In this document: positions 2,942-14,556 of the stretch, piece by piece
Numbering within the stretch: position 1 is the first letter of the stretch
Layout: every line of letters begins with the position of its first letter
Origin: Candidatus Thorarchaeota archaeon
GTDB lineage: Archaea > Asgardarchaeota > Thorarchaeia > Thorarchaeales > Thorarchaeaceae
Assembly: GCA_016839605.1 (NCBI GenBank)
Contig: JAEOTX010000189.1
Location: 1-14,558 of the forward strand
Direction: 5' to 3'
Length of the DNA: 14,558 nucleotides
The notes under the pieces: generated by a model
What the model was told of the DNA's origin: nothing
Databases searched by the model: none
What the model saw: only the letters and a program-made list of their open reading frames with translations
Translations under genes and position numbers: made by a program

Positions 2942-3550
2942 ATGTCTGAAGTCGAGCTAGTATTCACCACCACTGCAGGTTGGCAACAATATCTCCCTCT
3001 GAAACGAGAGGAGAATATGCTTGACGTGATTGCATCAGATCATGACATCAAATCAATCGATCTTGAGCCACTGAGATTTTGCGAAGATGTGAGAAGTGTA
3101 GATTTGAGCGGCAACAAGATCGAACATATTGATCTCAGTCCACTAGAGTCTTCGAAGAGTCTAGAGTCAGTCGTTCTTTACGGGAATCAGTTGAAATCAA
3201 TAGACCTCAGCCCGCTAGATGGAGCCTCCAAGTTGAAGGATCTTTGGCTCTTTGAGAACAACCTAGAAACGATTGATCTTGCGTCGTTGGGCTCGTGTAT
3301 GAGTCTGAGTTGGCTATCCGTTGCACACAATAGGTTGGTTACTCTCAATCTCGGTCACCTTCAAGCGTGCGGGAACCTACGCTTCCTAGCACTCGAGTTT
3401 AATTTCTTCTCCGAACTCAATGTCACACCCCTTCTTAGATGCCCTAAGCTCTCCGAGTTCAGTGTGGATCCCGGTGTCATTCTATATGCCAGTTCAATCC
3501 CTCTTGATATTGGTGTGGACCATGCCCTTGCTCATCTAGTGCGAAGATAA
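2942..3550 (+). CDS. Leucine-rich repeat protein (about 6 repeats of 24 aa)
   Basis: IDLEPL/IDLSPL/IDLSPL/IDLASL/LNLGHL/LNVTPL occur at exact 24-aa spacing with an LxxLxLxxNxL core. ATG 2942 is preferred; 2900 is possible. Confidence 0.9.
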   Translation: MSEVELVFTTTAGWQQYLPLKREENMLDVIASDHDIKSIDLEPLRFCEDVRSVDLSGNKIEHIDLSPLESSKSLESVVLYGNQLKSIDLSPLDGASKLKDLWLFENNLETIDLASLGSCMSLSWLSVAHNRLVTLNLGHLQACGNLRFLALEFNFFSELNVTPLLRCPKLSEFSVDPGVILYASSIPLDIGVDHALAHLVRR

Positions 3551-3671
3551 ATTCCAGCCACTTTCCAGGGACCTCCAATTTCCCAGAGGATTGATTTCCA
3601 TAATAGGTGGACACCCTAACAACTATAATTAATCACACGTGCGATTCGCTTTCCATCTGAAGGTGGGCCAA

Positions 3672-5336
3672 GTGGTAAGACAAATCGCTCTTGATTTCGC
3701 ATTCCGTGAGAAAGGCAAGAAACTGGTTGTTGAAGACGAAGATGTCGGCTTGGCGATGGCAGTTGTCTTAGCGGAGTCAAATAGAAAGGCGAAGTCCAAG
3801 ATAACCCATATAGCTCCAGTATCTTTTCCATACTGGATTGTGCAGGTCTCTGATACAGACTCTATTCTGTTGTCTGCTATTGGGGAGTCGTCAGTAACTC
3901 TTGAGCTGAGTGAGAACACTGCAATAGGCCCTGTTCGAAGGATCATCAGCAATGAAACCAGTGAAATCAAGGATATCCCTGAAGCAATCGAAAAAGCCCT
4001 TCCTCTATTGAGAGAAATTGAGCCAAGAGTCCACCATATCAAAAACCTTCAGCAACCGGAGATCATTGTCGCACAAAGCAAGAGGTATGTTGAGGTAGAC
4101 CCTAATGCAGACCTTAACGCCCTTGAGATGAAACTGGACTCTCAGACTGCACTAAGTGTGAGTGAAGAGTTTCAAGTTCTTGTGGAAGATGCAGCCACCA
4201 GACTAGACAATATTGAAGAGCTGCACAGGTTGACAAAGGAGAAGCTTACCGACCGTCTTAATGCACTAGAGAATGTGATGGCGGCAGAATTGACTCGGTG
4301 GGAGAAGAGATACGGAACACAAGAGCAGTCTTCTGAGCTGAAGATGGAGAGTCTTAATGAAAGACTGTCTGATAAGATCTACAGGATTAAGGACAGAAGA
4401 AAAAAGGATGAGAAGACACTAGTTGCAGATTTTGTACGTGAAACAACCGAGCTTGAGAGATTCTTTGCAAAAATCATGCAGGATATCAAAGTCACCAGAG
4501 GTGACATGGCTGCAAAAGCTGTGGATATTCAGGAAGCTGTGGATCTGTTTAGGTCCTTAATCAGCGGACTCACAGACACTGTTCGTACATTCGATGATGT
4601 TGCCGACTCATTGAGTGATTATGCAGACGCATCTCTCCAGAAAGCGCTTGATTACGATGATGCAGTTGCTGCCCAAATCCAAGAAGAAGAAGAATCCACT
4701 GACACTCAAATTTCAGAGCTACAATCCAAAATGATGGACCTCAAGAAAGAGATGGATGAAAAGAACGCCGAACTGAATGAGATGAAGAGAAATGTTACTG
4801 AAGCTGTGGATAGAATTGATGGGTTGGTTGAGAAGCGGCTCGAGGACCTTCAGATAGAACTTCAAAATATATCGCATTTGACGTTCGATAATAACTCCAT
4901 CAGAAACTTAGCACCCCTTACACTAGTGAATATCATGACGTATGTTGTCACCTACAACAAAGGAAAACCAATTGTAATTACTCCTATGATGATTCCGAAG
5001 GACAGGTTTGGCCTGCCTTGTGAACATGAGCCACTCGACAGTGATCTTAACAGGTTTATCCAGAAGTCGATGAAGAAACTTTACAAAGATAGTCCATCAT
5101 TTAAAACAGCCCTTGAAAAGGCATGTGCAGCGGGGAATGTGTTCCAGAATCCTGAGTCTGCTAAGATTTTCAATTCGGGTCTTGATAGACTCTGGACAAG
5201 ACAACTTCTGAAGGAAGGAGTCAAGGAGACTCTGAAACCATTATTCACCAAGCTCGTTGGTAAGTGTCATAAATGCTGGGCGGACATAGGCACTTCAGGT
5301 AAGTTTTGTCCTGAGTGCGGAGTGTCTCTGCTATAA
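3672..5336 (+). CDS. Long coiled-coil protein with a C-terminal zinc ribbon
   Basis: Central ~250 aa E/K/L-rich heptad-like region and terminal CHKC...CPECG. GAAGGTG SD precedes GTG 3672 and TATAATT lies near 3624. Confidence 0.85.
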   Translation: MVRQIALDFAFREKGKKLVVEDEDVGLAMAVVLAESNRKAKSKITHIAPVSFPYWIVQVSDTDSILLSAIGESSVTLELSENTAIGPVRRIISNETSEIKDIPEAIEKALPLLREIEPRVHHIKNLQQPEIIVAQSKRYVEVDPNADLNALEMKLDSQTALSVSEEFQVLVEDAATRLDNIEELHRLTKEKLTDRLNALENVMAAELTRWEKRYGTQEQSSELKMESLNERLSDKIYRIKDRRKKDEKTLVADFVRETTELERFFAKIMQDIKVTRGDMAAKAVDIQEAVDLFRSLISGLTDTVRTFDDVADSLSDYADASLQKALDYDDAVAAQIQEEEESTDTQISELQSKMMDLKKEMDEKNAELNEMKRNVTEAVDRIDGLVEKRLEDLQIELQNISHLTFDNNSIRNLAPLTLVNIMTYVVTYNKGKPIVITPMMIPKDRFGLPCEHEPLDSDLNRFIQKSMKKLYKDSPSFKTALEKACAAGNVFQNPESAKIFNSGLDRLWTRQLLKEGVKETLKPLFTKLVGKCHKCWADIGTSGKFCPECGVSLL

Positions 5337-10732: not shown

Positions 10733-11611
10733 ATGCATCTGAAAGGAATGGAGAAAGTCCGCGAGAAACTGCCGGGATATGCCGGGAAGAGATTAGCATT
10801 GGTGCCTCTGCTCATGTTTGGCATGGCGCTGCTAGGATTGACATTCTTGCTGATTCTTGACATTCTACCCCGAATTGCTGTACAGCTATCTTTCCTGGTT
10901 TTTATAGAGCCATTATTGCCAATCGGGGGCATGACGGTATTATTAGTCGTTGCACTCTGGCTTGTTTGGGGAGTCTGGCGAAAGAGAATCGAGCTTCAAG
11001 CTGATCTTGGAGAACTGGCATATCAACGCGTCATTCCTCATGGGATTTCAGGAATTGGATTACTATTTGGATGTCTAGTTCATATGTTTGTGTCTGTGAG
11101 GTCTCTGCCTCCCGGACCTCCAGTGAACGAGTTGACAACTCTGTTCTCGCAGTCCCTCCTTCCTCTGGTTGGCATCCCTATCGAGTTAGACGTTCCTCTA
11201 CGGATAGTACTTGGGAGCTTCTTTGTGTTGCTAGGATTACTTACTATGCGTCAGGCAGTTCTTACGTTTGGCATCGATTATATGATTGTGATTTACCTCT
11301 ATTTCCCTGATGAATCAGAGATTCAGCAGCGGGAGATTTACTCAATAATCCGTCACCCGACATACTTCGCTGGCATCTTGTTGGGTCTATCTGCAATGTT
11401 CTTTCGAATGTCCGTCTTCACAATCATCTTCTTTGTGCTATTTTATGCTGCCTGGAGAGCGCAGATTTCAGTCGAGGAAAAGGAGTTGATGGAAAGGTTC
11501 GGAGAGGGATATTCTGAGTATATGGAGAGAGTCCCAGGCCTATATATCAGACTAGGGGACCTCGGCACTTACCTTCGATTCCTCCTTGGCCGTTCTGTAG
11601 ATGAAGCGTAG
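10733..11611 (+). CDS. Isoprenylcysteine carboxyl methyltransferase (ICMT/PEMT) family membrane protein
   Basis: IYSIIRHPTY and EEKELMERFGEGYSEYMERVP motifs with multiple TM segments. The substrate is unknown. Confidence 0.85.
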   Translation: MHLKGMEKVREKLPGYAGKRLALVPLLMFGMALLGLTFLLILDILPRIAVQLSFLVFIEPLLPIGGMTVLLVVALWLVWGVWRKRIELQADLGELAYQRVIPHGISGIGLLFGCLVHMFVSVRSLPPGPPVNELTTLFSQSLLPLVGIPIELDVPLRIVLGSFFVLLGLLTMRQAVLTFGIDYMIVIYLYFPDESEIQQREIYSIIRHPTYFAGILLGLSAMFFRMSVFTIIFFVLFYAAWRAQISVEEKELMERFGEGYSEYMERVPGLYIRLGDLGTYLRFLLGRSVDEA

Positions 11612-11683
11612 TTAGTTGTTTGACCTACATAATCCAGCTAAGATAAGAGAAGGTAATACAAAGCACGAGGATAGGTGTACAAC

Positions 11684-13126
11684 ATGGCCAAGGAATTTGC
11701 CTGGGATTGGATATCACGAAATGAGTCACAAATGATTGAAGTAAGCGACAAGGTCTGGGAGTTTGCTGAGCTTGGACTTCTAGAGTTCAAATCATCTGAA
11801 CTGCTTGCCAAGACGCTCGAAGAGTATGGATTCACAGTTGACCGCGGCATAGCGGACATGCCTACAGCGTTTGTAGCGACATATGGCTCAGGATCACCAG
11901 TCATTGCTATCAATGGAGAGTATGACGCACTGCCGGGATTATCTCAGAAGGCTATAGCACAACAAGACCCACTCGAGGAGGGAGCACCGGGCCACGGCTG
12001 TGGTCATAACATCCATGGCGTATCAGGAATGGCTGGAGCGATAGGAGCAAAAATCGCCATGGAGAAGAACAAGATACCGGGCACAATCAAATTCTTTGGT
12101 TGTCCAGCCGAGGAGACCTATAGCGGGAAAGTGTTCATGGTACGAGATGGATACTTCGACAATGTGGATGCAGCTATAAGTCATCATGCGGGCAGCACAA
12201 ATACAGCAGGGATAGGAAGCTCATTGGCTGTGAAGTCCGCAAAGTTCCATTTCCATGGTCTGACATCACATGCAGCTTATTCACCCGAGCATGGACGCAG
12301 CGCACTTGATGCACTTGAATTGATGAATGTTGGAGTCAACTATATGCGAGAGCATATCATGCAAGAAGCAAGAATCCACTATGTGATCGAAAAAGGCGGA
12401 ATGCAGCCCAATGTCGTTCCGGATTATGCAAGGAGTTGGTACTACATTAGAGCTCCAGAGATGAGTCAAGTAGATGAAATGATCACGTGGATTCTGGACA
12501 TTGCGAAAGGAGCCAATCTGATGGCTAGGACTAAACATGTTGTAGATGTCGTAGAAGGGTGCACCAACGTTATTCCAAGCAAGAGTCTTAGCGATGTCGT
12601 GGTTGGAAACATGAGAGAAATCGGGGCACCTGAATACACAAATCAAGAAATGGACTTCCTGAAGGAGATGAATAAGTCAATCACGAAGGAAGCAAAGATT
12701 GAACTTCTACGCATGATGAAACGACCTGACTGGGAAGACTTTGTTGACGTCCTCATTGATACGACTATTCCCGATCCATGGGACAAGGGCATTGTATGGC
12801 CGGGATCAACTGATGTGGGAGATGTAAGTTGGGTCACCCCTACAATGGAATTTACCACCGCCACCGGACTTCTTGGAGACCCGGGCCACTCATGGCAGAC
12901 GGTTGCTGTCTGTGGAATGAGCATAGGGCATAAGTCGATGCTATTCGCTGCTAAGGCAATTGCTGGCACCGCCCTAGACCTTCTCACAAAGCCTGAGCAA
13001 TTGAAAGCTGTTCAGGATGAGTTCGAGAAACGATTGATGGGTCGGGAGTACAAATGCCCGATTCCAGACGATGTGAAACCCCCACACGAAGTTGCCAGAG
13101 AGGCAGCAAAAATAACACGCACATGA
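11684..13126 (+). CDS. M20 amidohydrolase, AbgB-like (p-aminobenzoyl-glutamate hydrolase subunit B family)
   Basis: GEYDALPGLSQ, GHGCGHN, GCPAEE, GRSALDA, GSTDVGDVSW and HSWQ motifs; AGGTG SD precedes ATG 11684. Confidence 0.92.
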   Translation: MAKEFAWDWISRNESQMIEVSDKVWEFAELGLLEFKSSELLAKTLEEYGFTVDRGIADMPTAFVATYGSGSPVIAINGEYDALPGLSQKAIAQQDPLEEGAPGHGCGHNIHGVSGMAGAIGAKIAMEKNKIPGTIKFFGCPAEETYSGKVFMVRDGYFDNVDAAISHHAGSTNTAGIGSSLAVKSAKFHFHGLTSHAAYSPEHGRSALDALELMNVGVNYMREHIMQEARIHYVIEKGGMQPNVVPDYARSWYYIRAPEMSQVDEMITWILDIAKGANLMARTKHVVDVVEGCTNVIPSKSLSDVVVGNMREIGAPEYTNQEMDFLKEMNKSITKEAKIELLRMMKRPDWEDFVDVLIDTTIPDPWDKGIVWPGSTDVGDVSWVTPTMEFTTATGLLGDPGHSWQTVAVCGMSIGHKSMLFAAKAIAGTALDLLTKPEQLKAVQDEFEKRLMGREYKCPIPDDVKPPHEVAREAAKITRT

Positions 13127-13163
13127 GGACTAGACTGAATATATCTGAGAGGAGTGATGTGCA

Positions 13164-13547
13164 ATGAAGATGATAGATGTCGACAGCGAGGCTAGAAAGA
13201 AGAGCAAAGCTCACTATTCTCCTGCAGTAGTACATGACGGGATTGTATACGTATCAGGTCAACTACCTATGGATCCAGAGAAAGGAAGGCCAGTTGAAGG
13301 AGGAATTGAAGAACATACTAGGGCTGCATTGCAGAGCTTATCCCAGGTGCTTGAGGCCGCAGGGAGTTCAAAGAAGAAGGTGTTGAGGACCACGGCCTAT
13401 ATTCCTGATGTGACGTTATGGGGCCAGGTGAATGAAATTTATGCCGAGTTCTTCGGAAAACATAGACCAGCAAGAACCGTTGTTCCAACCACTGAACTAC
13501 ACTATGGGTGCCTCATAGAGATCGATGCTGTCGCCTTCGTTGACTAG
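13164..13547 (+). CDS. RidA/YjgF/UK114 family enamine/imine deaminase
   Basis: HYSPAV, YVSGQLP, RPART (catalytic Arg present) and IEIDA motifs; GAGGAGTGA SD; starts 37 nt after the amidohydrolase stop. Confidence 0.92.
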   Translation: MKMIDVDSEARKKSKAHYSPAVVHDGIVYVSGQLPMDPEKGRPVEGGIEEHTRAALQSLSQVLEAAGSSKKKVLRTTAYIPDVTLWGQVNEIYAEFFGKHRPARTVVPTTELHYGCLIEIDAVAFVD

Positions 13548-13595: not shown

Positions 13596-13715
13596 ATGAT
13601 GAATATGAGTATTGAGTCAGAAACAGTGACATGTAAGGCATGTGGAAGATCGTTTCATTCCGAAGAAGAGAAGGAGAATCACATCAAGGAATCTCATATG
13701 AAGCCAAAGACATGA
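13596..13715 (+). CDS. Single C2H2 zinc-finger microprotein (36-39 aa) missed by the ORF track
   Basis: MMNMSIESETVTCKACGRSFHSEEEKENHIKESHMKPKT fits C-x2-C-x3-F-x8-H-x4-H. A TTAATTATA box lies at 13568-13576; in-frame ATGs are at 13596, 13599 and 13605. Confidence 0.85.
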   Translation: MMNMSIESETVTCKACGRSFHSEEEKENHIKESHMKPKT

Positions 13716-13762: not shown

Positions 13763-13817
13763 GAAAAAGAAGATTGCCCTGTGCAATAGCATTCACATTA
13801 ATGCTGCATGCACAGGG
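13763..13817 (-). terminator. Long hairpin followed by a U-rich tract at the 3' end of the small basic protein gene
   Basis: CCCTGTGCA (13777-13785)/TGCACAGGG (13809-13817) with inner AGCATT/AATGCT, followed by TTCTTTTTC on the minus strand. Confidence 0.55.
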
Positions 13818-13856: not shown

Positions 13857-14069
13857 TTATCCCTTCACTTTCCTGTCCATATATGAGCCCAGACGCCGAT
13901 TGGAATTAATCCGCGGTGTCAACGCGATATAATCACGAAGTGGAAAATTAAGGGAGCTATGCCTAGCATCAATGATATCTGCAAAAGCAGCTGTATACCA
14001 TCTTAGTTCATTCTTGTTCATTTCACGTCTCACTTTGCGTTTTCGTTTTCGTGCTTCTCGAGCTGACAT
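13857..14069 (-). CDS. Small Arg/Lys-rich hypothetical protein (70 aa)
   Basis: GAGGAGG SD (14087-14081) lies 11 nt before ATG 14069 (MSAREARKRKRKVRRE...). The ORF-track start at 14186 falls inside the structured leader. Confidence 0.7.
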   Translation of the reverse strand: MSAREARKRKRKVRREMNKNELRWYTAAFADIIDARHSSLNFPLRDYIALTPRINSNRRLGSYMDRKVKG

Positions 14070-14100
14070 TTTTCCATTTTCCTCCTCGAGGACAGCACAC

Positions 14101-14268
14101 AAAAGACAGCTTATCGCCCCTGGCGTGTAACTGTCAATAGAGTCCTCTTCCCCGAGAGGACCGCAATCAGAAGAAGTCGACAACACGAGGAAGAGAGCTC
14201 TACATTAGTTCCCACTAATAAGCGGGAACCGATAGAGATGTGTGATATTTCCTCGTGGCATTTCTGTC
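14101..14268 (-). ncRNA. Candidate structured ncRNA or cis-regulatory leader (~170 nt, three hairpin domains)
   Basis: Nested stems of 5+9+5+10 bp, a second hairpin of 7-8 bp and a third hairpin followed by UUUU. G-U pairs form only on the minus strand, and TTTAAA at 14297-14292 lies about 24 nt upstream. Confidence 0.6.
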
Positions 14269-14328
14269 AGTGCAGCAAAAACGAATTCCGTTTTAAACTT
14301 TGATGTCTCTGTAACCATCAGATATGAT

Positions 14329-14556
14329 TCACTGGGCGATTTCCTTGATCTTTACCAGCGTCTCAGAAATTGGCATCTCCCAACTCCTAGTATCAAGGTT
14401 GAATGCTGACAGTAGATGAACGTAGCCTTTACCCTTACCCTTGATTACCATCTGGATAAAGAATTCCTCAGTGTATTTTCTAAAGAGGCTGATTCTTGAA
14501 AGGAAATGATTGGTTTCACTAGCAGGCATCATCACCCAGACATTATAGGTCGACTT
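14329..14556 (-). CDS. 3' end of a gene truncated by the window edge (hypothetical; possibly an Lrp/AsnC-like multi-domain regulator)
   Basis: The frame is open from the window edge (KSTYNVWVMMPASE...FNLDTRSWEMP...IAQ*). The family guess is weak. Confidence 0.6.
   Translation of the reverse strand, partial: KSTYNVWVMMPASETNHFLSRISLFRKYTEEFFIQMVIKGKGKGYVHLLSAFNLDTRSWEMPISETLVKIKEIAQ

Follow-up and report, generated by a model that had tools for sequence, protein, structure and literature searches.

Here, we report a small basic protein gene and the leader RNA that precedes it, found in a 14,558-nucleotide (nt) stretch of genomic DNA from a Candidatus Thorarchaeota archaeon (hereafter the window, meaning this whole stretch). 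The gene is a 70-amino-acid (aa) open reading frame (ORF) on the minus strand (14069..13857; N-terminus MSAREARKRKRKVRRE). Its leader of about 190 nt, better conserved than the ORF, can fold in two mutually exclusive ways that are close in energy, one hiding and the other freeing the Shine-Dalgarno (SD) sequence, with covariation support for both. With fair confidence, we read the leader of this stand-alone transcription unit as a ribosome-gated, two-state translational switch driven by an upstream ORF (uORF); we are less sure of the exact direction and signal of the switch. The leader is an undescribed new RNA family, and the protein an undescribed new small-protein family; no paper describing the element was found in the literature collection searched, which is incomplete.

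Leader folds and upstream ORF

All leader features lie on the minus strand. The leader (14260-14060) folds far better than shuffled sequences (z, -4.8; 0/200), which bears out the structured leader proposed in a first-pass annotation made from the sequence without database searches. It contains three purine-rich segments (1, 5, and the SD) and three pyrimidine-rich ones (3, 4, and the anti-SD). Fold A pairs 1 with 3, 4 with 5, and the anti-SD with the SD; fold B pairs 3 with 5 and segment 1 with the anti-SD (1:6), the latter helix being lengthened by variable uORF codons. Segment 1 (CACGAGGAA; 14249..14257), which covers uORF codons 2 to 5, thus has segment 3 as its partner in fold A and the anti-SD in fold B, and segment 3 (CUCUUCCUCGUG; 14184..14195) is shared between segment 1 (fold A) and segment 5 (fold B). 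Segments 4 and 5 form hairpin P3 (14142..14162); in fold B, segment 3 pairs with its CGGGGA loop and 3' arm. The pairing analyses further define a region (14088..14101) made up of a long-range pairing stretch (14101-14096) and the anti-SD UCCUC (14092-14088). The SD itself (GAGGAGG; 14081..14087) is hidden in fold A and free in fold B.

Covariation supports both members of the mutually exclusive pair, with two-sided changes in 4/9 pairs of helix 4:5 and 6/13 pairs of helix 3:5. In L031 and L034, a change of one base is matched by changes in both of its partners, and in L069 the loop is altered with 3:5 pairing kept. Helix 1:3 has 95% of its alignment cells paired and shows no covariation of its own because it is nearly invariant. 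The long-range fold-B helix, extended by pairing of a variable uORF stretch (14239..14244) with 14101-14096, is maintained through sequence turnover: across 15 clade representatives, some of them related, cognate duplexes averaged -10.3 kcal/mol versus -5.8 kcal/mol for swapped partners (permutation P of about 1e-5). Opening the SD costs 6.5 kcal/mol in fold A and 0.2 kcal/mol in fold B in the window (homologue medians, 5.8 and 1.6 kcal/mol), and the SD is more open in fold B by more than 1 kcal/mol in 33/37 leaders. The median energy gap between the folds is 2.3 kcal/mol, with 22/37 at or below 4 kcal/mol.

Hairpin P2 (14204..14233), present in both folds, spans the 3' half of the uORF and its stop, and four of its pairs show two-sided changes. 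Its loop ends in UA (14217-14216), the U being found in 42/43 copies and unpaired in 42/43, the A in 43/43 and unpaired in 30/43; the amino acid encoded under the U varies. This dinucleotide is a candidate protein or ligand contact. Two further elements are less constrained. The linker at 14166..14179 is conserved in composition alone (mean, 80% C+U; minimum, 67%; 43 copies), is single stranded in fold A, and often lacks a run of four U's (U4). Hairpin P4 (14105..14135), seen in alignment A4 and showing covariation, is missing in some lineages. A conserved terminator at the leader's end was considered and rejected, as the U4 after P4 is not kept. At the transcript's 5' end, GACA (14268-14264) is also complementary to the invariant UGUC at the main start (14068-14064; ATG TCA) and can pair with it, which may further conceal the start codon. 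In L049 and L069, the 5' end forms 8 bp just upstream of the SD, and the two differ by a compensatory change.

The unit has its own archaeal promoter, with a TATA box at 14290..14297 and transcription predicted to start at about 14268. In most copies, a TATA-like word precedes the uORF ATG by 35 to 36 nt; in genus g5, whose 5' end is shorter by 3 nt, the distance is 32 to 33 nt. Because the ATG follows the TATA box by 32 to 36 nt, which places it about 3 to 7 nt from the predicted start, the uORF (14205..14261) is near-leaderless; it has 18 codons plus TAA (16 to 18 codons among relatives) and no SD of its own. The ATG, a TAA/TAG stop, and an open frame are present in 43/43 copies, versus 21/43 and 1/43 open for the other two frames. 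Spacings within the uORF vary by multiples of three only, with four or more separate 3-nt indels, including one that falls between the ATG and a conserved CGAGG; spacings elsewhere in the leader vary by 1 to 2 nt. In L077, CAG, which pairs better, stands in place of the stop and is directly followed by TAA.

The encoded peptide is less constrained than its frame. The ratio of nonsynonymous to synonymous polymorphism (pN/pS) is 0.7 to 0.85 in three of four scorable clades (0.41 in g7). A YWFH-like block lies within P2 at a variable distance from the stop, and its Trp column, 7 or 8 codons before the stop, holds Trp in 39/43 copies and has lost it in four, the window's own copy having Arg. Since the amino acids are weakly constrained, the block is embedded in P2, its distance varies, and Trp can be lost, it looks as though the act of putative translation has been selected more than the peptide sequence. 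The uORF ends 92 to 135 nt before the main start without overlap; fusion of the two frames by readthrough or frameshift was rejected, because their relative frame varies among 0, 1, and 2.

The basic protein and its distribution

The 70-aa ORF is a real, selected gene. Its frame is open in 43/43 copies, the other five frames containing stops in 38 to 43 of 43, and its pN/pS of 0.26 to 0.41 in five clades indicates purifying selection. On the plus strand, 13857-14069 contains stops. The product is strongly basic, as first annotated (predicted isoelectric point, 11.35; net charge, +12), with a grand average of hydropathy (GRAVY) of -1.0; GRAVY values of -1.0 to -1.4 mark it as hydrophilic. The strong SD of the first-pass annotation also stands: GAGGAGG (14087-14081) lies 11 nt 5' of the ATG, inside the window in which SD-like words of the host genome peak (-16..-9; 361 near versus 83 far). 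The 16S 3' end is absent from the host assembly.

Homologues are 58 to 97 aa long and share a start at an MS codon pair 3' of the SD. Start calls among them vary, being late in L077 (about 2962-3144; 47 aa) and early in others (80, 92, and 109 aa). The 109-aa database version with a GTG start (P0002) was rejected as an over-extension because close relatives lack an open frame upstream. The conserved core runs from a basic segment into an amphipathic helix (K12, R15, K19, E21, R23, F29) and on to a later Y/T motif; in the window's protein, an Arg/Lys-rich N-terminal helix leads into the amphipathic helix (residues 3 to 34), followed by a variable tail. The basic segment keeps its charge and otherwise varies in sequence. 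The predicted structure is one confident helix (predicted local distance difference test score, 84 to 93 for residues 1 to 30 and about 60 beyond), so fold searches are little informative. The protein had no match in Pfam, NCBIfam, PADLOC, PDB sequences, Foldseek, or the ESM Atlas, and no Pfam match below an E value of 0.03 was obtained for 40 family members. The small basic ribosomal families eL41 (PF05162) and bS22/mS38 (PF08213) gave no profile match in the archaeon's own genome at an E value of 10. A resemblance to basic helix-loop-helix proteins was rejected, as a proline precedes the YIAL-like motif. Judging by charge, size, and type of control, we tentatively suggest that the product may bind RNA, probably the ribosome, via its basic helix.

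By profile search, the gene is present in 36/86 genomes of the Thorarchaeota family (6/16 genera); the ORF is conserved, contrary to one of the outcomes that the first-pass annotation named as refuting. It is single copy, except for a partial second match in an N-gapped assembly (G004). No credible protein match was found outside the family (400 genomes of the phylum): five weak matches, four in other Asgard families and one in genus g29, were cut out and proved out of frame or unrelated, and the remaining weak matches, judged without cutting out, sit in long unrelated frames. A search of 1.84 billion proteins returned 16 relatives, and the database homologues carry a Thorarchaeota label. A pattern scan of 185,579 genomes gave 30 matches in archaeal records and one in Nocardia, which the RNA model rejected. 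No copies were found in the viral contigs searched.

The leader follows the gene. Co-occurrence of the two, which the first-pass annotation had put forward as a check, was found throughout: a covariance model places the leader beside the ORF in 36/36 ORF-bearing genomes, its one extra match being a copy truncated where the contig ends. All homologues whose upstream DNA is long enough have it, with only the 3' half kept in the degenerate L070. It never precedes another gene in the genomes searched, the RNA model found zero leaders outside the family (151 genomes), and Rfam covariance models gave 0 gathering-score matches in the window. In L070 (155-702), the promoter, uORF, and P2 are replaced, P3 has decayed, and the ORF has diverged (95 aa), which looks like loss of the switch. 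The metagenome copy L052 has a leader followed by a truncated ORF and is possibly a chimeric contig. The locus tree largely tracks genera, and neighbors are stable within genera and different between them; this is consistent with vertical inheritance, with losses, of a stand-alone chromosomal gene, and many of the genomes are incomplete.

Proposed mechanism and alternatives

Computed folds suggest how the uORF could drive the switch. Helix 1:3 was the first to form on the growing transcript in 38/39 leaders. With the uORF part removed, 33/39 folded to 3:5, the SD still being shut (5.1 kcal/mol). A ribosome footprint on uORF codons 1 to 8 closed the initiation region in 24 to 26 of 39 and opened it in 2 to 6, and a footprint near codons 12 to 16 left it about as open as free RNA. 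The naked nascent RNA is predicted to take fold A (1:3, 4:5, anti-SD:SD), the default OFF state. A ribosome starting on the near-leaderless uORF would strip away segment 1; the freed segment 3 is then computed to pair with the CGGGG loop of P3 and displace segment 4, and the SD would be kept shut for as long as the ribosome occupies the 5' half of the uORF. After the ribosome leaves that half, the anti-SD would be captured over long range by segment 1 together with the variable uORF codons, giving fold B, a free SD, and the ON state. One pass of translation may prime the RNA, and re-loading of the uORF may shut the SD again, so that output would peak when leaderless loading is slow or when the ribosome lingers on late codons. 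What the switch senses is most probably how the translation apparatus is faring, and not the sequence of the peptide. A wider circuit, in which this bistable switch would sense ribosomes and control an undescribed Thorarchaeota ribosome-binding regulator (rescue or hibernation type), the protein feeding back on the conserved leader loop, seems to us rather unlikely.

Several points weigh against the switch and its proposed output. The folds are computed, with energies that are nearest-neighbor estimates for 37°C; we infer translation of the uORF, the signal, and the function of the protein; and the direction of control rests on a kinetic argument. The bases of the uORF ATG and stop also lie in helices, so part of their conservation could be structural. 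L049 and L069 have no local anti-SD and use other pairing. The copies are related, so counts overstate independence. The protein has no homologue and its neighbors differ between genera; nothing ties it to ribosomes.

Arginine-rich motifs such as those of lambda N and HIV Rev and Tat bind RNA hairpins, and the first-pass annotation proposed that the small protein may bind its own structured RNA. An autoregulatory ribonucleoprotein of this kind, with the Arg-rich helix binding the P2 loop or P3 and locking the OFF fold, or else adding a layer to the uORF switch, is the strongest of the alternatives and still an unlikely one. The basic helix is of the type that binds hairpins, leader and single-copy ORF are paired strictly 1:1, and the conserved, mostly unpaired UA of the P2 loop is accounted for by neither fold. 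Against it, nearly all conserved leader bases can be explained by a choice of two partners, without invoking a protein-binding site; the invariant CGGGG loop in particular is explained, via 3:5 pairing, as a toehold for segment 3. The conserved uORF frame is left unexplained, and the basic segment varies apart from its charge. Self-binding thus seems unneeded for most of the conservation, with the P2 loop as a candidate site. Of the first-pass reading, the ORF and its structured leader stand; it missed the uORF and the second fold, and the evidence points instead to a uORF-coupled two-state switch. Its suggestion of an antitermination module lacks the defining features, as no boxB-like GNRA loop and no phage context were found.

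More doubtful is an arrest-peptide or aromatic-amino-acid attenuator, in which stalling at the Y-W-F-H codons or at an S-G-N-stop end opens the SD. Trp in 39/43 copies and Ser at position -3 in 43/43 would suit it, as would the openness of the SD under late-codon footprints. An arrest motif at a fixed distance was not found, given the high uORF pN/pS, the loss of Trp in four copies, and the 7- or 8-codon spacing. The Y, W, F, and H codons lie within P2 at almost one codon each, with no run of cognate codons in the uORF, and the downstream gene is monocistronic and not biosynthetic.

There is a slim chance that a ligand or trans-acting factor (riboswitch, small RNA, or protein) throws the switch with the uORF secondary, or that aCPSF1/FttA terminates transcription prematurely at the U/C-rich linker in fold A. 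Near-equal fold energies suit any trigger, and the linker is 80% pyrimidine and single stranded in that fold; aCPSF1 works with U-tracts (PMC8716108). No Rfam match was found, few conserved unpaired bases could form a ligand pocket, conservation of the uORF frame would be unexplained, and the linker often has no U4 run. Least probable, and very much so, is a type I toxin-antitoxin-like locus of hok/mok logic, its toxic small protein silenced by structure and antisense RNA: the default OFF fold, which agrees with the tightly repressed gene that the first-pass annotation envisaged, the coupling of the leader ORF to the main ORF, and the patchy presence in 6/16 genera speak for it, but the protein is hydrophilic with no hydrophobic transmembrane toxin helix, no recurrent antisense TATA was found in or behind the unit, the locus is single copy, stable within genera, and largely follows them in its tree, and it was not found in viral contigs or PADLOC.

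Genomic neighborhood and comparison with known systems

Behind the gene, a terminator-like hairpin with a U/C tract (13763..13817, minus strand; z, -3.3) partly upholds the structured trailer of the first-pass annotation; the whole 151-nt trailer scores only -1.1 and does not form a conserved RNA motif. In other genera, too, hairpins precede pyrimidine tracts, with sequences unrelated to one another, and the trailer has the look of an ordinary terminator. A 39-aa ORF with a C2H2-type zinc finger (13596-13715, plus strand; PF12171 just over the cutoff) converges on the basic gene. Farther downstream, an M20 amidohydrolase gene and then a RidA/L-PSP family gene (11675-13547, plus strand) are conserved neighbors in the closest relatives. 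On the other side lies the 3' end of a gene for an approximately 363-aa double winged-helix (AsnC-type helix-turn-helix) regulator (14329-14556, minus strand), which precedes the unit in many genomes of genus g1. A coiled-coil protein of 565 aa, with a zinc ribbon at its C terminus and of no clear family, is encoded at 3639-5336 (plus strand). Elsewhere in the same genome (G000, contig C66, about 11060-11480, minus strand), a long leader with a TATA box, an SD, and short ORFs precedes tandem RIO kinase genes; comparison rejected its homology to the basic-gene leader.

Attenuation by leader ORFs is well established in bacteria, as is control by uORFs in eukaryotes. The present leader is a compact case from an archaeon of the Asgard lineage, with exact, covariation-supported helices, and raises the question of whether a leaderless start can control access to an SD-led start within one mRNA. 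With it come a new RNA family and a new small-protein family, in an archaeal variant of a known regulatory kind. According to a 2021 paper, no transcription attenuation was known in archaea (PMC8448881). The available portions of two ribosome profiling studies, on Haloferax volcanii and Methanosarcina mazei, list archaeal uORFs as candidates, with short ORFs in 5' untranslated regions suggested to regulate the downstream gene (PMC10117724, PMC11456600); unlike the uORFs in those portions, the one described here has a covariation-supported two-state structure.

The RNA-binding systems share with the basic gene an Arg-rich N-terminal helix (lambda N, HIV Rev, Tat), and the P3 loop CGGGGA resembles the TAR loop. 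Unlike lambda N, the unit has no GNRA boxB hairpin, its conserved loops being CGGGGA and NNUA, and no phage nut, viral, or antitermination context; the P3 loop is explained by its pairing with segment 3. Amino-acid attenuators (trpL, pheL, hisL) differ in having a run of cognate codons and a downstream biosynthetic operon, neither of which was found here. Mycobacterial attenuators likewise control downstream expression through a leaderless short ORF at the 5' end, according to the available part of the source (bioRxiv 10.1101/834739); compared with what is described there, the thorarchaeal uORF has no run of sensed codons and belongs to another domain of life.

In plasmid repY-repZ (IncI1/IncB) and tap-repA (PMC8053102), a long-range pairing that switches on the main gene depends on translation of a leader ORF. 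The same holds for mok-hok. Unlike in all of these, the locus here is chromosomal, its uORF does not overlap the main ORF, its product is neither a Rep protein nor a membrane toxin, and no antisense promoter was seen (an antisense TATA search of the sequence for coupling of the repY-repZ or mok-hok type found none that recurs). Also similar are the erm/cat attenuators (ermCL-ermC, cat-86; see also PMC5499644), in which a short uORF overlaps SD, anti-SD, and anti-anti-SD helices and ribosome position sets whether the downstream SD is free. The thorarchaeal leader has their conserved uORF start, stop, and frame and their exclusive SD-hiding and SD-freeing folds. It differs in its archaeal TATA promoter, in a near-leaderless uORF with a weakly constrained peptide, in a target that is a small protein of a new family, and in that the uORF itself is the anti-anti-SD, so that a ribosome sitting on its 5' half closes the SD. 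The leader works like bacterial leader-ORF translational attenuators and repY-repZ coupling, and it stands outside each of the named families by the features that define them.
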